Source: Sphyrna mokarran
Lineage: Eukaryota
Assembly: GCA_024679065.1 (NCBI GenBank)
Contig: JAGIQG010000026.1
Coordinates: forward strand, 36,084,001-36,148,000
Direction: 5' to 3'
Length of the DNA: 64,000 bases
Shown here: positions 11,380 through 62,675 of the stretch, in pieces
Layout of the letters: every line of letters starts with the position of its first letter
Numbering within the stretch: position 1 is the stretch's first letter
The notes under the pieces: generated by a model
Told to the model about the DNA's origin: nothing
Databases searched by the model: none
Seen by the model: the letters and a program-made list of their open reading frames with translations, nothing else
Position numbers and translations under genes: made by a program

Positions 11380-13520
11380 AGAACATAGAACATTACAGCG
11401 CAGAACAGGCCCTTCGGCCTTCGATGTTGCGCCAACCAATTAGGAAAAAGTAATGACCCTCTAACCTAAACCATTCTCTTTTCGTCCATAAACTTATCTA
11501 CAAACCTCTTAAACGCCACCAAACTTGGCGCATCTACAACTGCCGCAGGCAGGGCATTCCATACCCTTACCACCCTCTGGATAAAGAACCTACCTCTGAC
11601 ATCCGTCCTATAACTACCACCCCTTAATTTAAAGCTATGTCCCCTCGTGCTAGCTTTCTCCATCCTAGGAAAAAGGCTATCACTGTCCACCCTATCTAAA
11701 CCTCTAATCATCTTATATGTTTCAATAAGGTCTCCTCTTAGCCGCCTTCTTTCTAACGAAAACAACCTCAAATCCCTCAGCCTCTCTTCATAAGACCTGC
11801 CCTCCATACCAGGCAACATCCTGGTAAACCTCCTCTGTACCCTCTCCAATGCCTCCACATCTTTCTTATAATGCGGGGACCAGAACTGCACACAATACTC
11901 CAAGTGAGGCCGCACTAGAGTTTTGTACAGTTGCAACATGACGTTGCGGCTCCGAAATTCAATCCCCCTACCAATAAAAGCTAAGACTCCGTATGCCTTC
12001 TTAACAACCTTATCGACTTGATTGCCAACTTTCAGGGATCTATGCACATATACACCAAGATCCCTCTGTTCTTCAACACTATTAAGAGTCCTACCATTAG
12101 CCCTATACTCTACACATTTGTTATTCCTGCCAAAGTGAATTACCTCACACTTTTCCACATTAAACTCCATTTGCCACCTCTCGGCCCAGCTCTGCAACTT
12201 GTCCAAGTCTCTCTGCAAACTATAACACCCCTCTTCACTATCTACCACTCCACCGACTTTAGTGTCATCTGCAAATTTACTAATCCATCCTTCAATACCC
12301 TCATCCAGATCATTTATAAAAATTACAAACAGCAGGGGCCCCAAAACAGACCCCTGAGGTACACCACTTGTAACCGAACTCCACGATGAATATCTCCCAT
12401 CAACCACCACCCTCTGTCTTCTATCTGCTAGCCAATTCCTAATCCAATTAGCTAAATCACCCTCTATCCCATACATCTGCATTTTCTGCAGAAGCCTTCC
12501 ATGGGCCACCTTATCGAACGCCTTACTAAAGTCCATATATACCACATCAACTGCCTTACCCCCATCCACCTCTTTGGTCACTTTTTCAAAAAACTCAATA
12601 AGGTTAGTAAGGCACGACCTACCCTTCACAAAACCATGCTGACTATCCCCAATCAATTCATTTCTCTCTAAATAACTATAAATCCTATCTCTAATAATTC
12701 TCTCCAATACTTTGCCCACAACAGAAGTAAGACTCACCGGCCTATAATTCCCCGGAAAGTCTCTATTCCCCTTCTTGAACAATGGGACCACATTCGCTAT
12801 CCTCCAGTCTTTCGGCACTATACCTGTAGCCAACGACGACCTGAAGATCAGAGCCAGAGGCTCTGCAATCGCCTCTCTCGCCTCCCAGAGAATCCTAGGG
12901 TAAATCCCGTCCGGCCCAGGGGATTCATCTAACTTCAAACCCTCAAGAATATCTAGCACATCCTCCTTATCTACTTCAATACTTTCCAGTTTGCAACCCT
13001 GTATCCCAGTGTTTTCCACAACTACATTTACATCTCCCTGCGTGAATACCGAAGAGAAATATTTGTTCAGTACCTCTCCAATCTCTTCAGGCTCCACGCA
13101 CAACTTCCCACTGCTGTCTCTGACTGGCCCTAATCTTGCCCTAACCAATCTTCTATTCTTAACATATCTACAGAAAGCTTTAGGATTCTCCTTGATCCTA
13201 TCAGCCAAAGTCTTCTCGTGTCCCCTTTTAGCTCTCCTCAACTCTCTCTTTAGCTCCCACCTGGCTAATCTATAGCTATCCAGTGCACTAACTGAGCCTT
13301 CAAGCCTCATCCTGATATAAGCCTCCTTTATCCTTTTAACCAGCGAATTAACTTTTTTAGTACACCATGGTTCCCTTACTCGACTATTTCCTCCTTGCCT
13401 GACAGGGACATACTTATCAAGGACTCGCAGTAGCTGCTCCTTGAATAAGCTCCACATTTCAGATGTTCCCAGTCCCTGTAGTTTCCTAGTCCAACCTATG
13501 CACACTAATTCCCTCCTTAT
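11380..13520 (-). mobile_element. Young 5'-truncated CR1-clade LINE with an uninterrupted ORF2 RT region
   Basis: ORF 11466-13505 (679 aa) has PGPDG, YRPVSLTS, DFSKAFD, GVPQGSVLGP and FADD motifs. The 3' tail is a ctatgtt-type repeat. Near-perfect 9-bp TSD ggcaggatt (11371-11379) and ggctggatt (13521-13529). Confidence 0.97.
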
Positions 13521-13789
13521 GGCTGGATTTTCCAGTTGTGCTCACCCCAAAACTGGAAAATCCTACCTAAAGACAATGGACCTTCGCATAGTCCCTCCTT
13601 CCCCCGCTATGATTCCTGTGGCAGGTGGGATGGAAAAACTTCCCCCATTGTGTCATTTAAAAGTTACATCATGGTCAACATAAAGTTGAGTGGCCAAACA
13701 ATGGAACTGATTTCATGTGTTTTGTGGGAATTTTCCAGCTCCATTTGGAAGATCATGATTGGAGAAGTGCTGTCAACAGGCTGGCCAAT

Positions 13790-14100
13790 GGGTGGCACAG
13801 TGGTTAGCACTGCTACCTCATAGAGCTAGGAACCCAGATTTAATTCCAGCCTTGGGTGACTATCTGTATGGAGTCTGCACATTCTCTCCGTGTTTGCGTG
13901 GGTTTCTTCTGGGTGCTCAGGTTTCCTCCCATAGTCCAAAGGTACGTGGGTTAGGTTTATTCACCATGGTAATTTGCCCCTTAACATCAATGGTATTAGC
14001 AGAGTAATACTTGGGATTACGGGCTAAGGCCTGGGCGGGACTGTTGTTAGTGTAGGCCAAATGGGCTGAATGGCCTCCTTCTTTACTGTAGGGATTCTAT
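13790..14100 (+). mobile_element. HE1/V-SINE
   Basis: ggtggcacagtggttagcactgct head, V domain (tgcacattctctccgtgtttgcgtgggttt) and CR1-type tail. Confidence 0.9.
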
Positions 14101-23969: not shown

Positions 23970-24320
23970 ATTGGCAAAGTGGTTAACACCACTGCCTCTC
24001 AGCGCCAGGGATCCAGGTTCGATTCTGTCTTGGGATTACTGTGTAGAGTTTGCATGTTCTCCCCATGTCTGTGTGGGTATCCTTTGGGTGCTCCCGTTTC
24101 TTCCCAAAATCCAAAGATGTGCGGGTTAGATGGATTGGCCATGCTACATTGCATCTTAGTGATCAAAAGATGTGAAGTTGGTGAATTAGCCATGGTAAAT
24201 GCATGGGATTAAGGGGATAGGGCAGGGAGAGCGGTCTGGGTGGGATGCGCTTTCGGAGGGTCAGTGCAGAGTCGATTGACTGATGGCCACCTTCTGCACT
24301 GTAGGGAGTCCATGGTTCTA
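23970..24320 (+). mobile_element. HE1/V-SINE
   Basis: Same head, V domain and tail as 13790-14100. Confidence 0.88.
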
Positions 24321-25964
24321 TAGGATAAACACTCAAATAGGATAAATATTGGAAAAGAGCGAATTGGCACAAACACAAAGGGTCAGGGAGCCTCCAGTAC
24401 TGTACTATTCTAGTTTATGAAAGTGATCACTCTAATTAGATAATTTAGCTACTGAGTGAGTTTTTCACATTATTGTTAAAACCTCATTGTGAGAAACTCT
24501 CAGCTGAAAATTGCTTCTCTGCCATTTATTGAACTAAAATATTGCCCAAAATATGTCCTTTCACTAAATGTTGTGAAATTTCATTTCACAACATAAATAA
24601 ATCTACCTAATGAATTGTCTTATATCTTGTTATGCCTTTATCAAAGATTTGTTGGAAGTTCTCAACATGTCCCACTAATCTGGGTTAGACCTTTTACGAA
24701 TTGATGAGCTGAATTTGCTTTTGAGTTTTTTCTTACATGTATCTGTGAGGGAAGAAAGACACTTGTTTTGATGCATTTCTATAGCTTTTATTTTATCTAT
24801 GAATATCAGAACTTATACTAATAGTAGATGAAAGGAAATAATACCTTATGTTTATGCTAGTTAAAATAAAAAAAAAGTTGAATGTCGAGATCGATCCCGC
24901 CTGTTTTTACCGACACTAGTTGATCATGAGAGACACATGTATAAAATACATCTTTCTTATTTTAATTTGTTTTGAAAATAGTTACATTTTCAAAGAAAAC
25001 AGCTGGAGAGAAACAGTAGAGACAGGACAAGGGAACTAGCTTGAGCGAGCAGGCCCCAAAGAACAGCGTAAAGGGATGGAGCGAGTGATTAGTCCAAAAC
25101 AGTACGAGTTAGGGGATCATGGTGGAAGGGAAGGAGAGATAGTAATGGGAATCTAAATAAATGGGCAATATAGCGGAAGTGACTGAATGAGGGAGTTGTT
25201 GAAGGAGACGTGTTTACAACAATTCCACTTCATTGGAACTGCTTTCCCACATCATGCTAGACAGTCAAAACATACCACTCTGAAGGAACAAAAAGTGCAA
25301 GCAGAGGAAAAGAGAGACTGTTAAGCAGAGAGAAACATGAGAACAGCCAGAGAGAGAGAGACACAGGAGCAGACAGAGAGAAAAAGCAATACAAAACTAC
25401 AATACAGCTAGGAAATAATTGATGTCCTGTAATTTAAAGTAAAATGTCAGGTCATATGATGAAGCAACAATTTCACATAAAGCTGCAAACTCCAACTGTG
25501 AAACTCAAGTAATCTTTTAATGCAGCAGAGAATGAAGCATTGCATTAAACTCATCGTGAATAAGTTTCGAAGTCTGATTGACAGGCTACTGCATAGTGAA
25601 ATGGTGCAACACAAGTGCAAATGTAAGAAACAACAGCCATCACTTGCAAATCATACAGCTGTTCCAAAGAGCACAATAATGGAGTGTCTTGGCAGCAATG
25701 ACGGAGGGTGGAAGCCACATCCAAGGCTGGATGCAGCACTGATGATCCAAAGTCTTGTTTTGTTGGAACAATTGTAAATTATCAAGGGAATGAATAGCAG
25801 GAGATGTATTGCAGACAAGAACTTACATTATGAATGTGTATGTACTTTATTATTCTATTGTCATGTTGCTCCAGTTTCAATTACAGCCCAGCAACTTGCT
25901 GATCCTTCAGCAAAAAACTACTTGGGCCTTGAACAGAATTATCCACCAAAAGACGCCCACAACT

Positions 25965-26277
25965 GGGGCAGCACAGTGGTTAGCACTGCTGCCTCACAGT
26001 GCCAAGGACCCAGATTAGATTCCCAGCTTGGGTCACTGTCTATGTGGAGTTTGCACATTCTCCTTATGTCTGCACGGATTTCTTCCCACAGTCCAAAAAT
26101 GTGCAGATTAGGTTGATTGGCCATGCTAAAATTACCCCTTAATGTCCAGAGATATATAGGTTAGAGGGATTACTGGGTAAATATAGAAATATGGGAGTAG
26201 GACCTGGGTAGGATGGTGGTCAGTGCAGACTCGATGGGCTGAGTGGTCTCTTTCTGCACTGTAAGGTTTCTATGATT
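25965..26277 (+). mobile_element. HE1/V-SINE inserted in C relic 3
   Basis: ggggcagcacagtggttagcactgctgcctcacag...ctgcactgtaaggtttctatg. Confidence 0.92.
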
Positions 26278-26413
26278 TATAACACTTTGCCTGGCCAGCA
26301 AATTATCCATGAGTTTCGCTGGGGCTAATTGGACAGTCACTGGAAGAACAAAAGCAATGTGTTTCCCTATCCATCGCTGTTGTGGAACACAATCTCTACA
26401 GCTACCTGGTAGT

Positions 26414-29400
26414 GAAACCAAAAGAAAACATCCTGGAAAATCTCAGGTCTGGTAGCATCTGTAAGAAGAGAAAGGGGCTGATGTTTCAAGTCCAGATGAC
26501 CCTTTGGCAAAGCTAAAAGGCATTGGAAGTGGGAGATATTTATACCGTAGGGTGAAGGAATGAAAGATGAGTTAGCCACAAAAACAAGGGGAAAGGCTGC
26601 TAGAGAGAATAGAAGGTCTGAAAGACCAAATGGTAGAGAAACTGAAAGCAGAAGGTAAACTGTGGCAGTTGATGATGATGTGGGGCAGGGGTGGGGAAGA
26701 TGGATGGGAGAAAAGGGAAGCAAAGGGGTGAAAAGATAAGAAAGGGGGATAAAATGGGGTGGGGGCAGAGTGGGCAGGCAGAAAAAAATAAAGTGAAGAA
26801 ATAGAATAGTAAAAATTGAATAAAATAAAAACAAAGGGGTCAAGCTGGGATAGAGTTATTCATCTGAAGTTGTTGAATTCAATGTTGAGACCAGAAGGCA
26901 GTAAGGTACCTAGCCGGTAGGTGAGATGCTGTTCCTCCACTTTGTGTTGAGCTTCACTGGAACATTGCAGCAGGCCAAGGACAGACATGGACATGTGAAC
27001 AAGATCAAGTGTTAAAATGGCAAGTCATGGGAAGATCAGTGTCCTGATTACGCACAGACCAAAGGTACTCAGCAAAGCAATCATCCAGTCTACGTTTGGT
27101 CTCTCTGATATAGAGGCCACGTTGGGAGCGGTGAATGCAATAGACCAAATTGAAAAAATTGCAAGTGAAACCCTGCAAGTGAAATTCTAGTTAACATGGA
27201 ATGTGTATTTTGGACCTTGGATGTTAAGTATAGAAGACGTAAAGGGGAAGGTGTTTAATCTTCTGTGATTGCATAGGAGCTGCCGTAAGTGATGGGAGAG
27301 GTATTGGTTATAATGAAAGAGTGGACTGGGTTATCCCTGGGGGACGATCTCTGCAGAATGCTGACAAAGGGAGTGAAGGAAAGATATGTTTAGTGGTGGC
27401 ATCACATTGGCGAAAATGATGGAGCATTATGCTTTGCACATGGAGGCTGATGAGGTGAAATAAGAACAAGGGGGACTCTAGCCTTCTGGGGGTGGTGGTG
27501 GGGGTATGGAATGCACTGCCAAGTAAAGTGGTGGAGGCAGGTACTCTGGAGTTATTTAAGAAATACTTAGATGGGCACATGAACAGAATAGGAATGGAGA
27601 GGTATAGAGAACTGATTTAAAATAGGGATCATGAGCCTTGGGAGTCCGTGGGAAGTGAGTAAATAGATGATGGATGTATTTGTTTTTATCCTACAGGTGC
27701 TTTGGTCCACCTTGTTGTCTAACGAGGGGCATACACGCAATGGATCGTGAGAGGACTGCTCTTGGATCTTTTTCGAGAGTATCCTACTGCTTCACGTTGT
27801 TAGTGTACGCTTGACCTGGACCATCTGATGGGCAACACGACAGCTCAGTGACCATCGCTGTGCTGTGCAGATACATGGATTTGGGCCTGTGTCTGTGGGA
27901 GTTTGCGCATTCTCCCCATGCTTGCGTGGGTTTTCTCCGGGAGCTCCGGTTTCCTCCCACATCCCAAAGATGTGCTCTTAGGCTAATTGGCAAAACAAAT
28001 TCTCCCTAAATTGTCTCAAATTTGGTTTTTAAATCCATAGATCTATAAACATGGACAGGGATCGCGGGTAGAGATGGGAACATCGGGGTGGCGGCGCGGG
28101 CTCGTTGGGCTGAAGGGCCTGTTTCCCGTGCTGTTTTGTTCTTTGTTCTTCTGGGAGGGAGTGGAAGGGGTGAGGATCATGGTGCAGGAAATGGACCGCG
28201 TGCCGTTGACAGCCCTGTCAACTTCTGTGGATAAGAAACCACAATTGAGGAAAGAGCACATATTAGAAGCACCACTTTGGGAAGTGATATAATTGGAACC
28301 AATATGATGGAGGTGAAGGAGCTGAGAGAAAGGGATGGAATCCTTACAGGATGTAGGCTGTGAAGGATTGTAGTCTAGACAGCTGTGGGAGTCAGCACGC
28401 TTATAATGGAGACGAAAGGAGACAGAAAGGTCAAGGAAGGAAAGGGAAGTACCTGAGATGGACCAAGTGAAGGTGATGGAGTGGTGGAAATTGGAAGCAA
28501 AGTTAATGAATTTTTCCAGGTTTGGACGACAACATGAAGCGGCAGCAAAATAGTGTACTAGTAAAGGAGTTGTGGGAGGTGATCTGGGCAGGCCTGGAAC
28601 AAGGAATGTTCCACAACCCCAAAAAAAGACGAGCATATTTAGGACCCATGGACATACCATTGTTACTCCTCTGATTTGGAGAAAGTGGGATGAATTAAAG
28701 GAGAAGTTGTTGAGAGATAGAACGAGTTCAGCCAGGTGGAGAAGAGTAGTGGTGAATGGGAATTGTTTAGGCTTCTTTTCAAGAAAGCAGCAAAGAGCTT
28801 TCAGGCCATCCTGGTGTGGGATGGAGATATAGAGTGATTGCACATCCATGGTGAATATAAGGCAGTTAGAGCCTGCGAACTGGAAGCTGTCAATATGACA
28901 CAGGTCATTAGAGAAATCCCGACTGCAAGTGGAGAGGGAATGAATCAGAGGAGTGAGGGTGGACTCAAGTGGGGCGTGAGCTGACACAATGAGCCTACCA
29001 GGACAGTCCTTTTTGAATTTTGAGAAATAGGTAGAAGTGGGCTGCCTGGGGTTGGAGACTATGAGTTTGGAATCCAGAGGAAATGGTGTTGGAGATAGTG
29101 GCTTGACATTCAGTGGTGTGGTCACTATCCAGGGGTAGGTAGGAGGAAGTAACTGAGAGTGATGCTCAGCCTCAGTGAGTAGAATTCAGTATACCAAATG
29201 ACAACAGCACCCCCTCTATTGGCAGATTGACAACAAAACCTGAGGCAGCAAAGAGCAGAAAGTTCAGGAGAAAAGAGATTAGAATGGGTGAGGAGGACAG
29301 AAATATTAAGATGGCCAATGTTCTGTCGACAGCTCTCAATGAAAAAATAGTTGTCCCTTTGGGAGTGTCCAACTAGAGGACACCTCACCCTACAGTATAA

Positions 29401-52195: not shown

Positions 52196-53140
52196 TCAAT
52201 TAACATATTCATTTCTGGGATTAGCAGTTTAATAATAGATATGTAAAGGGCATGTCTATTTGAATCGTGACAAACAGATTTTGTTCTACTCTTCCCAAAT
52301 AGCACATTTCGATATCTTAAACATTAATTTACAAAAGGTATATACTGTTAGCATTAGCACGAGAAGTATTTTGAGAAATTATTTAAGAGCACGGCAAGAA
52401 GAAACATTGAAGTACATTTGCTTCAAATTTTTCTGTACATCAGCGATACCAATACCTTACTTGATTCTAATAACAAACTGACGACTAGACACTTTGCATT
52501 TACGCTCGTAGATTTAATTGTTATTTTTAAACATTTATCAGAGCATTTGTTTTTGAAGCAGTATCTATGATTAACTCCTGTGACGTTTAATTTGATTTCA
52601 CTTGAGAGTACACAGTACTCTGTCACTTGTCCCCTTAAAAAGTATGTACATTTGATCTCAGGGCTTACATGTGCTGAGTCTGAAGGCACATGTTCTAAGG
52701 AGGTGCACAAAATTCAAACTGAAGATAACACCTAGCTTTTTAAGGAAGGATCTCATCGCCAACCGAAACCTCAACTGCAGGACGATTGAAGAAGCTTCAA
52801 AGCTCACTAAAAAATGTAATTTATAAATCACTATATCACCATAAGATGTGAACTTTATCACGGTGAAATTTTGTTCAACTCAACTTATAATCCAATATTT
52901 AAGCACCATAACAGGGCAGTTGCAGTTGATGAACATTGCCCAGCATAGAATTAAGCCAAACAGATTATGTTTCACCAAGTTATTGATCGAAGTGAGAACA
53001 ACAGGAGTTTACCATAACTGACTTCATCTCCGGACTAAGAAAGAGGACAAAATACCGATGTTTAGCACAAATCAATAACTTTGAGGCTGTAATGAAAAAA
53101 GATCAAATGTTGTACATATTGTGAAACATGCACAAGGTTA

Positions 53141-53436: not shown

Positions 53437-54376
53437 GGAGTGATTCCCCCATTCTGCTGCACCGACTTTTTTTTTAAGCATAGCGGGATGGGAGATTTTA
53501 GCAGGGCCAGATGAGTGCAATTCACGCTATGCGCCTGGCACCAAGCGCATTTGTCATGATGTAGAGATACCGGCATTGGACTGGGGTAAACACAGTAAGT
53601 AGTCTGACAACACCAGGTTTAAATCCAACCAATTTATTTGATAGTAAACTCGCAAGCTTTCGACTCTACGGCCTTCATCAGGTGAATCTTATGGCTTGAC
53701 GAAGGCCATAGAGTTGAACGTTTGCGAGTTTACTGTCAAATAAATGGTTGGATTTAAACCTGGTGTTGTCAGACTACTTACTGTACCAAGCGCATTTCCC
53801 AGTGCTAGATATCCAGCGCTGGCAGCTCCGCGCTGGATATAGGAGTGGAGCTGCATAATTTATGTTAATTCGAATTTAGATGCTATTTACATGCTCTTAG
53901 GGGGCCTGGGACTGCCCAAGGTGCAAAGTGTCAATGCCCAGGGGCACCTTGGCACTGCTCACCAGCAGGGGCAGTGCAGTGAGGGTAGTGGGTTCTGTTT
54001 CCTCTTTGACTTTGGGATCATGAGCATAGGCCAACAATTCTTTGTGGGAAAGGGATTGGAAAGGCCAGCGTTGCAGTGGTTGCGGGGCTGGCCGGCAACT
54101 GGGAGGCCAGCAGACAGGGACCAATGCGCAAACATTGATTCAGTACTGATAAATCAACGCATGTGCAGTAATCCACTCAGCACAATGCTGCTGGCCTCTC
54201 CAGCAGGAATAGGGCCTATCCCCTGATTTTCAATCGCGATTCACACTACTGCACTCTGCAGTGCATAGAGTATAGGAAATTCTTCTCTGAGCTTCCACTG
54301 GGGAAAAAAAAACGTGATTTACCCCAGTTTTCATGCAAATTTGACATTTAGAATTTTTTTGGGAAGGATCCAGCCT
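53437..54376. mobile_element. Probable non-autonomous DNA transposon (Harbinger-type MITE) hosting the palindrome
   Basis: GC-richer block with degenerate inverted termini (gggagtgattcccc...gggaaggatccagcc). Similar short elements lie near 10655, 13521 and 48990-49135. Confidence 0.45.
53553..53784. mobile_element. Palindromic non-autonomous Penelope terminal-repeat derivative
   Basis: Inverted arms of about 90 bp (53592-53682 and 53695-53784) and a 13-bp TSD accaagcgcattt (53540-53552 and 53785-53797). Confidence 0.85.
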
Positions 54377-58499: not shown

Positions 58500-61235
58500 A
58501 GCTGTGGTATGCTCCTGTGCTCCATGTGTGGCAAATCAGGAACCTTTACAGTGCCCAGGGCTCGCATGTGTGCAGGAAGTGTCTCCAGCTACAGTTCCTG
58601 AATGCCTAAGTTTCAAGGCTGGAATGGCAGCTGGGAACAGTGAGCATTTGAAGCTGAGAGTACTGTTGATAGTACATACAGAGAAGTGGTCAGACCGCAG
58701 GTTAAGATTCCACAGACATTCCACAGTGAATGGGTGACCACTAGGCAGAGTATGAGCATTAGGCAGGCAATGCAGGAACCCCCTGTGCAAGTCCCTTGCA
58801 AACAGATATAGCTTTGGATGTTATTCAGAGGACTAATCTCTGAGAGATCATTGAAAGCAGTAATAGCTAAATTTGTTGCATCTAAATTTGTTGGCTCTGC
58901 TGCATAGGAGGAGGAAGAGAAAATTTGGGAATGCAATAGTTCTAGGGGATTAAATTTAAGGGGAATAGAAAGGCATTTCTGTGGCTGCAAAGAAGGCTCC
59001 AGGATGGTATGCTGCCTCCCAGGTGCTAGGATCAACAATGTGTTTGAGTTTCTGGGCAGGCACGGTGGCTAGCATTGCTGCCTCACAACTCCAGGAACCT
59101 GGGTTCAATTCCCTGCTTGGGTCACTCTCTGTGTGGAGTTTGTATGTTCTCCCCATGTCTACATGGGTTTCTCCTGGGTGCTTCCAGAGTCCAAAGATGT
59201 GCAGAGTAGGTGGACTGACCATGCTAAATTGATCTTTAGAGTCCTGGGGTGTGTAGCTTAGGGGGATTAGTGGAGTTCATGTGTGGTGTAATGGGAATAG
59301 GGCCTGCGTGGGATTGTTGTGGGCGCAGACTCGATGAGCAAAATGGCCTCCTTCTGTAGTGTAGGGAGTCTATGATTTTCAGTAGCTGCAGGATATTCTG
59401 GAGAAAAGGGTGAACAGCCTGTGGTGGTGTTGCACATTGGTGCCAATGACATAGTAAAAAAAAGAGGTCCTAAAAGTGAAATATAGAGAGTTAGGAAGTT
59501 GTAAACTAGGATCTCAAAAGGTACTGATCTCAGGATTCTACCAGTGCCACATGCTAGTCAGAGTAGAAACATTAGGATATATTGGATGAATACGTAGCTG
59601 GAAAGAGAAGTTTCAGATTTTTGGGAAGTTGGAACCAGTTCTAGGTGGGAGCAGTACAAACTGGACGGAGTTGAAAGGAAAAGCATACGAAAAGACAAAA
59701 GTCAATGAGAATCCTGAAGACTGAGATAAATTCAGAATCCAGCAAAGGAGGCCTAAAAATTTAATGAGAGAGAAAATAAATGAGGGTAATTAGCAACGAA
59801 TATAAAAACAATAAGAGCTTCTTTAAACATATAAAAAGGTTAAAATGATAACAGGCCCTTAGAAAATGAATCTGAGGAGATACTTATGAGGAAACAAGGA
59901 AATGGCAACTGAGTTAAACAGATATTTTGCATCAGTCTTTAGGTTGGAAGATACTTTGAACATCCCATTAAAACTAAATAATACAGGGGAAAAATTAAGT
60001 ACAATCACTAGAGCAGCAGTATTAAACAAACTAATGAGGCTGAAGGTAGCTAAGTCCTGATGATATGCATTCTAGGATTCAAAAAGAAGCAGCTACAGAG
60101 ACAGTGGAAGCACTGGTTATAATTTTCCAAAACTCCTTGGATTCTGGAGAAGTACTGGAGGATTGGCAAACTGTCAATATGACATCATTATTCAAAAAGG
60201 AAAAAAGTGGATAACTGTAGGCTGATTGGCCTAATATCTATTGTTGGAAAAAGGTTGGAATCAGTTGTTAAGGAAGCAATAGCAGCACATTTGGAAAATC
60301 ATTATCTAGTCAAGTAGTCAGTAAAGCTTCATGGAAGAGAAATTGTATCTGACTAATTTATTAGTTTTTTGAGGAAAAAGCAGATAGAAGGGAGCTAGTA
60401 ATATATTGTATACGGATTTCCAGAAGGTGTTCTCACAAAATGTTGCTGTCGGATAAAAGTTCATGGTGTTAGAGGTAGTAACATGAAGTCACAGATGATC
60501 ACTCAAATGGTAGTGATATAACCTGAAGATCAGCACATCTAACACTTGCCCCTCACCTGAGAAGGCAGGGCCTTCATGAATAACCTCATCCAGCACAGGA
60601 ACTGAACCCATGCTGTTGTCTTGGCTTTGTATCATTAACCAGCTGTCCAGCCAATTGAACTAAACTTGAAAATATATATTGGCAGAGATACAGGATTGGC
60701 TAATGGGCAGAAAATAACAAGTGGGGATAAGGTTTTTTTCAGGTATGCGACCTATAACCAGTGGGGTTCCACAGGGATCAGTGCTGGGATCACAATATAT
60801 ATTAATGACTTGAAGGAGGAAGCAAATGTACTGTAGCCAAATTTTCAGACAACATAAAAATAGGTGGAAAGGCAGGTTGCGAGAGGGATACAAAAGTTTA
60901 CAAAGAGATATTGACATTAAATGACTGGGCAAAAAGTTGGCAAATGGTGTATAATAATGTTCTTTTTGAAATGAAGGACAAAAAAATTTTTACTTAAACG
61001 GAGAAAAACTGCAGAAAGCTGCAACACATGCAGCAGGTAATCATGAAGGCTAATGGAACGTTGGCTATTATTTCAAGGAATTTGGAGTATTAAAGTAAGG
61101 AAGTCCTGCTACAACAATATAAGGTACTGGCGAGACCACACCTGGAATTCTGTGATCAGTTTTGGTCCTCTTACTTAAGTAAAGATATTATTTCATTGGA
61201 GGTTCACCAAGATGATTCCCAGTATGGAGAGATTA
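58500..61235 (+). mobile_element. Decayed CR1 LINE with esterase-type ORF1 and ORF2 pieces, in an ELAVL1 intron
   Basis: VVLHIGANDI (SGNH esterase block), SGVPQGSVLG and VLARPHLEF motifs. A short SINE-like insert lies at about 60480-60665. Confidence 0.85.
59054..59374 (+). mobile_element. HE1/V-SINE nested in CR1
   Basis: Head, V domain and tail as in the other copies; it interrupts CR1 ORF1. Confidence 0.9.
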
Positions 61236-61267: not shown

Positions 61268-61543
<276 letters not shown>

Positions 61544-62027
61544 TTACCTGTGAAAAAAAAAAACCATACATCACATTGTCTGAGAAAGAGGTAACTTAGC
61601 CAAGATCCTGAGAATCAACAATACCAGTGAACAGAAGCTGCAAACAATGCAATGGAGTGCATCAAGTCCTGCCTGAATTAAGTACATAATGAATTTTATT
61701 TTGGTCTCTGAACTTTCTTTTTCAGTCAGTTGGATTGGGAAGCGGAATGCAACCATAATTCCTATTTACATTTCAACTGTGAAAAAAAAAATCAGTGCCG
61801 CATTTATGAATTTGAAACCACCTGAACCTAAGTAAGTGACTGGAAAACTCAGTTTAGTTAGAGAACATTACAGTGAAGAAGAAATGTTCATCGTTTTTGG
61901 TATTGGACAATACCAATTAAATACATCACAGAAGTGATGTCATTTGATTTAAGATTATTCATCCCAACCACATTCTCTACATAAAACAAATTTTTTTTCT
62001 CTTCTGTACACCAGTTTAATACAAAAC

Positions 62028-62372
62028 TCTTGGGGATCATTTCGAGAGTGTTTTCCTAGAGATGCCTTCTGGCTAAAATCAAGTGTAGTGTTGACATGCT
62101 GCACTTGGTTGAAGTCACTGGGTTATATTTCAGCTTCATTTGAAGCAATTTTTTAAAGCAGTATCTTGGCCTTTTGGCTAAGATGCAAATTAGATCAAGC
62201 CTTGGAGGAGGAGCTACACCTACTCCAATCAGCTGGGATCATATAGATCAAGCCCAAGACAGGTGGTGAGAGCCCTGTCTTGTCAGCTTAGATCGGGAAT
62301 GTCTCAACTTGTTGGGACTCTGAATTGGCTTTAATTTGACTTGATTGGATTGGAATAAAGTTGCAAAAAAAA
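62028..62372 (+). mobile_element. Retroposed element containing U2 snRNA-derived segments
   Basis: 62064-62089 matches U2 nt 12-37 at 24/26 and 62164-62184 matches U2 nt 7-27 at 20/21. It ends in AATAAA and poly(A). Perfect 15-bp TSD agtttaatacaaaac (62013-62027 and 62373-62387). Confidence 0.88.
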
Positions 62373-62675
62373 AGTTTAATACAAAACACAAGGAAATTCG
62401 TCAAAAGTGCCAGATCAAGTGATTTGTCATATTTGTAATTTACTGCTGCAAGTGATATAAAAGATTATTCCTGGTAAGAGCTATGTCACAGTAAAATAAT
62501 TCAGTTCCTTTGTTTTCAGAATGGTTTAGTAGTTTAAAACTTCTGGCATATTACATTAAAAGTGTCTACCTGGCATGTTGCTTGGAGATAAAAAAAAGGT
62601 TTAGAAAAGCACATCAAGGAAAATAACTTGTTTATATTTTCACCAGAAGTCCAACATTTCATTCAATATAAATCA

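Follow-up and report, generated by a model that had tools for sequence, protein, structure and literature searches.

Retroposons headed by fragments of small nuclear RNAs (snRNAs) are best represented by SINEU, which in the account of Kojima (2015; PMC4494074) is reported from crocodilians only. SINEU families are marked by the repeated addition of U1 and U2 pieces at the 5' end, a poly(A) tail and an internal oligo-T stretch, and are mobilized by Tx1-Mar, a group related to Keno whose relatives have shifted to other targets; the oligo-T stretch was used there as an argument against transcription by Pol III, and the mode of transcription was stated as an open question (PMC4494074). U2 sequence also marks the insertion sites of Keno (Tx1 clade) and Utopia (RLE), which join U2 on their 5' side at nt 37-39 and have 3' junctions starting at U2 nt 39 (PMC4640811, PMC6136364). 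Reptile Utopia, with target-site duplications (TSDs) of 20 bp, also inserts at degenerate U2-like sites, and in most turtle rows of part 7 of S1 Fig, judged by eye and uncounted, TCTG-like sequence then follows (PMC4640811). In mammals, U3 and U2 both form chimeras with L1, the U3 parts being repeatedly found truncated and in sense orientation; each U3/L1 or U6/L1 chimera arises on its own and as a rule gives no further copies (PMC13174262). The mammalian snoRTE combines an H/ACA snoRNA with an RTE tail (PMC4233971). Searches of the open literature turned up no report of a shark or a U3-headed snRNA retroposon family, and such a family may be catalogued in Repbase, Dfam or subscription papers. 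By term counts, PMC5499810, on shark SINEs, makes no mention of snRNA, Tx1 or SINEU and PMC10620051 none of Tx1 or snRNA, while PMC4758252 and PMC5786205 only cite SINEU.

This article describes a composite insert in 64 kb of shark DNA (the window), whose features are collected in the table. The original prediction of a 345-bp insert with a perfect 15-bp TSD, AATAAA and poly(A) is correct in all its parts: 345 nt (62028-62372) are flanked by a direct repeat identical at 15/15 positions (62013-62027 and 62373-62387), with AATAAA at 62354-62359 and an A-run at 62365-62373. Exact repeats of at least 15 nt placed 80-1000 nt apart occur three times in the window, and in only one of the three do AATAAA and an A-run precede the second copy. 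A TSD, AATAAA and an A-run together are marks of target-primed reverse transcription by an enzyme of the L1/Tx1 group, and the insert is, almost beyond doubt, a genuine retroposon insertion. The nick sequence departs from the L1 pattern TT/AAAA (as cited in PMC5322556). The insert carries stops in 3/3 forward frames, with no frame open throughout, and BLASTN found no second copy of it elsewhere in the 64-kb window (best E 0.067).

Table. Features of the insert, its target site and the neighboring exon (window coordinates)
Feature	Position	Strand	Basis or remark
first coding exon, ELAV-like (ELAVL1/HuR-like) gene	61321..61547	-	putative acceptor 61548-61549 read from sequence
empty target site, similar to U2 nt 39-59 if a 2-nt gap is allowed	62003..62021	+	U2 numbering from human U2
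left target-site duplication, 15 bp	62013..62027	+	exact-repeat search
U3 snoRNA 5' fragment, nt 11-45, element head	62028..62062	+	28/35 ungapped; Rfam U3 18.9 bits, E 0.051
U2 module 1, nt 12-37 (match can run on to nt 39); forms 5' arm of hairpin 1	62064..62091	+	Rfam and by-eye comparison
U2 nt 12-39 in inverted, antisense orientation; forms 3' arm of hairpin 1	62096..62123	+	fold, z -5.2
T6 run (former Sm-like site)	62147..62159	+	5' strand of predicted 6-bp helix with 62328-62333
U2 module 2	62161..62186	+	nt 7-27 at 62164-62184, 20/21; z -5.3
structured repeat unit 1: GAUC-A-AGC-C / inner stem-loop / UCA-GCU-NN-GAUC	62193..62240	+	fold and alignment
structured repeat unit 2: unit 1 scaffold, other inner stem	62246..62294	+	z -4.1; includes hairpin 62255-62282
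short hairpin, 7 bp in predicted fold	62301..62318	+	fold
AATAAA	62354..62359	+	5 nt before A tail; read from sequence
A8 tail	62365..62372	+	ninth A (62373) is first TSD base; read from sequence
right target-site duplication, 15 bp	62373..62387	+	exact-repeat search

The insert had been described as built from U2 pieces. Two such 5'-end pieces are indeed present, but the 5'-most piece, overlooked at the time, derives from the U3 snoRNA: the first 35 nt match nt 11-45 of U3 without gaps at 28/35 positions (~3e-4 after correction). The reference is human rather than shark U3 (bioRxiv 10.1101/2021.08.01.454689), compared by eye, and its sequence agrees with a U3 primer in PMC7349977. The Rfam U3 alignment, which stays below the gathering score, places nt 1-45 at 62018-62062 with top posterior values and so reaches into the left TSD, where the closing 10 nt (62018-62027) agree with U3 nt 1-10 at 7/10 positions (P ~0.01 in fixed register), possibly the trace of a join by 5' microhomology. 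Since the 5' end lies in register with U3 nt 1-11, random 5' truncation is unlikely; a template read to U3 nt 1 and joined through microhomology would yield a full-length copy, which the insert probably is. The differences from U3 at nt 12, 15, 27 and 29 fall on upper-case (conserved) positions of the Rfam consensus and are therefore unlikely to be shark U3 variants. A degenerate second U3-U2 junction considered at 62235-62252 is better read as part of a repeat unit described below.

One base past the U3 fragment begins U2 module 1, in which 62064-62089 match U2 nt 12-37 at 24/26 positions (chance ~1e-5); module 2 matches nt 7-27 at 20/21 (chance ~2e-4), both estimates with a generous search space and both counts made by eye against human, not shark, U2 (PMC4640811, S1 Fig). 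The Rfam U2 model scores 23.1 bits (E 0.016 on 601 nt), and 18.8 bits on module 2 alone, both below the gathering score of 46. At gathering scores Rfam returns no match in the whole window; six matches have E<=10, and the sole U2 (E 1.7) and U3 (E 5.4) ones among them fall in the insert. The insert has no Rfam match to tRNA, 5S or 7SL. Matches to His leader, SAM-II, FIV frameshift, IsrM, RyhB and Ysr35 were discarded as chance-level. No contiguous copy of one snRNA, as in a U2 or U3 retropseudogene, lies between the TSDs; the sequence is a mosaic in which a U3 fragment, two pieces of U2 and an antisense arm are combined with an unrelated structured body of ~190 nt, which agrees with the earlier view that this is not a simple U2 pseudogene.

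An Sm-like site had also been proposed at 62147-62154, about 58 nt after module 1. The spacing is real, but the G found after the U-run in the Rfam U2 consensus is missing from the site, whose posterior values are only 6-7, and the preceding 58 nt are not U2-like and hold the antisense hairpin arm, so that the proposal was given up. The spacer (62085-62170) has no snRNA match in Rfam, and its supposed likenesses to U4 and U5 were dropped together with the Sm-site reading for that reason. What remains is a run of six T at 62149-62154, the internal oligo-T of the insert. This run speaks against transcription by Pol III, and hence for Pol II acting from an outside promoter.

The fold of the insert is strand-specific, with z -5.0 on the forward strand versus -2.1 on the reverse strand, an asymmetry equalled by 2/94 background tiles. 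By raw folding energy 5/366 background tile-strands are as stable as the insert, and when z was computed for the six tile-strands of lowest energy only the two strands of one DNA inverted repeat exceeded it. Module 1 and its antisense copy, which the original prediction had overlooked, form hairpin 1 (z -5.2), ~60 nt long, in which 22 pairs are predicted with p>0.8. With the arms classified by eye, the 28 positions of its stem comprise 17 Watson-Crick pairs, 7 G·U, no A·C and 4 mismatches; the 7:0 ratio of G·U to A·C has P 0.008. Two of the three changes from U2 on the sense arm remain paired. Module 2 departs from U2 at one position, which pairs up the mismatch in U2 stem I; with the flanking bases this stem grows to a perfect 11-bp hairpin (z -5.3).

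Downstream, the body contains a duplicated motif whose scaffold pattern occurs exactly twice in the window, as units 1 and 2. Between them, of 15 predicted pairs 5 are changed on both sides and none is broken, a comparison of two internal repeats only, aligned by MAFFT. A covariance model built from the two units finds only those two in the window and no third copy; hairpin 1 was tried as one and rejected (E 8 with this model). The two hairpins named in the original prediction, at 62255-62282 and 62301-62318, are both present. The AGATCAAG repeats noted there are also found, at 62192 and 62245, and stand in the modeled fold as the bases of the duplicated structured stem-loop; they fail as proof of U2 origin, the 8-mer not being enriched window-wide (6 seen versus 3.79 expected, with 21/100 shuffles reaching 6). 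A likeness of unit 1 to the 3' stems of U2 is likewise better explained by the repeat unit. A-to-I editing could account for some of the G·U pairs, not for the double changes. Fold and covariation, as modeled, point to structural constraint on the RNA lineage.

Against human snRNAs the modules differ at 10/82 positions, whereas the TSD copies differ at 0/15 (P ~0.02 with these human references); for the U2 modules alone the figures are 3/47 versus 0/15 (P 0.14, human U2). From these counts the modules look older than the insertion. Their divergence, together with changes that keep the pairing, favors a transcribed master copy as ancestor over a one-off chimera.

The closest model is SINEU (PMC4494074), as had been proposed. 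Like SINEU-1, -2 and -3, the insert is shorter than 500 bp and non-coding (345 nt, stops in all three forward frames), ends in poly(A) (A8-9), has an internal oligo-T (T6) and no tRNA-type head, and carries stacked snRNA 5' fragments with partial duplications, here U3 11-45, U2 12-37/39 and U2 7-27 in series. SINEU-3 has a TSD of 16 bp that starts with AG, and the 15-bp TSD of the insert also starts with AG. The differences are the host, a shark rather than crocodilians; the 5'-most piece, U1 or U2 in SINEU and the U3 snoRNA here; the antisense U2 arm in a long fold-back and the duplicated, covarying stem-loop in the body; and the target, Mariner-N4_AMi being preferred by SINEU whereas the insert lies at a U2-like site. 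The likeness drawn here is one of architecture. With U3 in the first 35 nt and U2 only from +37 the insert falls outside the strict definition of SINEU, a head from U1 or U2, while the U2 modules in the 5' half leave the working likeness standing. snoRTE (PMC4233971) shares a snoRNA-derived part in a non-autonomous retroposon, which in the insert is a 35-nt fragment of U3, of the C/D class, combined with U2 modules and poly(A). The insert is neither Keno, nor Utopia, nor a plain snRNA pseudogene.

We therefore favor, as rather probable, the reading that the insert is one copy of a non-autonomous SINEU-like shark retroposon family copied by a Tx1-group LINE. In such a family U2 5' fragments, at least twice, and lastly U3 would have been added 5' to a structured polyadenylated RNA through template switching by a Tx1/L1-group reverse transcriptase, and the composite would have propagated as a unit, its modules drifting from the snRNAs with the pairing kept. 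For a master copy, Pol II would start outside the element, at an snRNA-type upstream promoter, or arrive by read-through. The fold-back arms may hide the 5' sequences and the branch-point-pairing sequences of U2 in double-stranded RNA, and recruitment of the ORF2 protein of the Tx1-group LINE may fall to the A tail and to the folded 3' part that holds the duplicated stem-loop. Nicks by the endonuclease would fall at 62012/62013 on the bottom strand and, 15 nt beyond, on the top strand, and target-primed reverse transcription would proceed to the U3 5' end, to be joined via ~10 nt of microhomology.

The alternative of an autonomous element, by which the insert is the 5'-truncated 3' end of a LINE of the Tx1/L1 group whose structured 3' UTR captured U2 (and U3) pieces, is unlikely. 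AATAAA placed right before the A tail and a 15-bp TSD suit such LINEs, and the duplicated motif would fit a 3' UTR bound by ORF2; yet no coding remnant occurs in the insert, and truncation would need to land exactly at the U3 5' end. Some crocodilian Tx1 families do carry U1/U2 sequence, but at their 5' end (PMC4494074). A second alternative, which we hold to be decidedly unlikely, takes the insert as the retrocopy of a functional structured shark RNA from a single locus (a polyadenylated non-coding RNA, or a hairpin precursor made of old snRNA pieces) instead of a selfish family. The strong strand-specific structure with compensatory changes, the dimensions of hairpin 1 and the poly(A) signal would suit it. 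It is opposed by the lack of a fitting Rfam family, miRNAs included, by the fact that mosaics of snRNA fragments are a known mark of retroposon heads (PMC4494074), and by a vertebrate survey in which relaxed copying of cellular RNAs is described in mammals and anole only, from a panel that may not include sharks (PMC5322556).

Highly improbable is a one-off chimeric retrocopy, in which template switches among U3, U2 and U2 were made within a single insertion, as in the mammalian U3/L1 and U6/L1 chimeras. The insert shares with these (PMC13174262) a truncated, sense-oriented U3 5' piece at the head of a TSD-flanked poly(A) insertion, and the known ability of both U3 and U2 to form such chimeras adds to the resemblance. 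It differs in having several modules, diverged and with structure kept, and a nick other than TT/AAAA. Modules joined in a single event should be as young as the TSD, which agrees poorly with the differences counted above (P 0.02-0.14 with human references). The changes, moreover, preserve RNA pairing, which argues against a one-off event because an unexpressed copy is under no selection for pairing.

The target had been likened to U2 nt 39-59. On the human numbering the nick between 62012 and 62013 would correspond to U2 nt 50/51, and the 20-mer published as the Keno target (PMC6136364) was used to score the site. When a 2-nt gap is allowed the site is among the 3-4 equally good matches in 64 kb, giving P ~0.001 if the nick must lie within 10 nt of such a match and 0.003-0.004 if 30 nt are allowed, values that refer to one site; ungapped, 386 sites in the window are as good (P 0.13). 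With the gap the likeness exceeds chance at this one site; without it the match is ordinary. The core 10-mer of the target occurs twice in the window, the second time at 52225 (0.37 expected; 5/100 shuffles), and this, with the U2-like 8-mer at 62412, indicates that such matches arise by chance. A custom target pattern (one match, 0/100 shuffles) had been fitted post hoc and was discounted in favor of the published motif. The match at 52214-52234, in an intron of the ELAV-like gene, is as good as the insertion site and no insertion is seen there. At 62412-62421, outside the element and 25 nt beyond the TSD on its 3' side, a 10-mer equals U2 nt 24-33; it is read as probably due to chance, as the 8-mer AGATCAAG is not enriched.

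A U2-specific endonuclease, as originally proposed, is a weak claim: the gapped match ranks high, but the 3' junction at 62373 is equivalent to U2 nt 51, and the matching TCTGT (62003) lies 10 nt upstream of the TSD. Strict targeting, in which Keno or Utopia proper inserted the sequence at its own U2 target, is very remote: it could draw on the gapped match, on the end of module 1 at U2 nt 37-39, where Keno and Utopia have their 5' junction, and on the use of degenerate sites by reptile Utopia (PMC4640811), but the insert lies outside any U2 gene, has its 3' junction at nt 51 and not 38/39, an ordinary ungapped match and a TSD of 15 bp where Utopia has none or 20 bp (PMC4640811), and encodes neither reverse transcriptase nor endonuclease. 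The likeness of the target reflects either a Keno relative cutting in another register or chance. An endonuclease with a residual preference for U2-like DNA, in a register unlike that of Keno, is conceivable at somewhat less than even chances.

For the SINEU-like family favored here, no Tx1/L1 partner was found in the window, and the one reverse transcriptase ORF examined there (11466-13541) looks CR1-like, which counts against this reading. The fullest form of the proposal, a shark snRNA-headed family of its own with a U3 head, U2 in fold-back hairpins, the duplicated motif as an ORF2-binding signal and an undescribed Keno-related Tx1 LINE that nicks U2-like DNA in a third U2 register, lying ~12 nt downstream of where Keno/Utopia cut, we regard as doubtful. 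U3 shares its promoter and cap type with U1 and U2. If the head is U3, the U1/U2 rule would widen to capped small RNAs with upstream Pol II promoters generally, and a SINEU-like family in sharks, if true, would mean that such elements arose either a second time or far earlier. The covarying duplicated stem-loop, as modeled, would be a concrete candidate for the recognition signal of a Tx1 reverse transcriptase, the register of the insertion site would allow an unreported endonuclease that reads U2 to be tested for sharply, and insertions of the family, if it is recent, could be used as presence/absence markers in shark phylogeny.

As to the host, the claim of a shark origin is confirmed by an immunoglobulin light-chain constant exon (1515-1841), for which the best 8 of 54 matches are from Mustelus, Scyliorhinus and Carcharodon at 92-86% identity, Mustelus and Scyliorhinus being foremost. 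The exon region (1464-1844 of the window; matches named lambda-1-like or sigma in sharks) lies ~46 kb from the 3' end of an ELAV-like gene, which runs on the reverse strand with RRM exons at ~48.3, 51.2, 52.2, 53.2 and 61.4 kb. The acceptor of its first coding exon is putative, being read from the sequence, and the insert probably lies antisense to the gene in putative intron 1, ~465 nt upstream of this acceptor. On the host strand module 1 (62064-62091) is complementary to the branch-point-pairing region of U2, ~520 nt upstream of the putative acceptor; that it might serve the ELAV-like gene as a decoy branch site is speculation. A forward-strand exon around the empty site was dropped after hand translation gave stops in 3/3 frames.

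Other repeats and reverse transcriptase remnants occur in the window. Positions 53592-53784, within an intron of the ELAV-like gene, form a large inverted repeat whose 43-nt arms match at 98% and whose 62-nt inner arms match at 81% (tile z from -17 to -24); this is probably a DNA element of MITE-like or short fold-back type. On the reverse strand, a 380-aa frame at 28043-29185 has no Pfam match and looks to us like a decayed Penelope-type reverse transcriptase, and an uninterrupted ORF of 691 aa at 11466-13541 encodes a reverse transcriptase (Pfam RVT_1), presumably CR1-like, which suggests a recently active LINE. In the elephant shark genome CR1/L2 elements predominate (PMC5381603). Four related interspersed repeats of ~300 nt (13794-14100, 23973-24322, 25966-26278 and 59054-59378; 66-73% identity) are probably an old shark SINE, and the window further contains a near-identical repeat pair (8126-8679/27596-28145, 93%) and an inverted pair (17606-18013/18636-19040, 97.5%).
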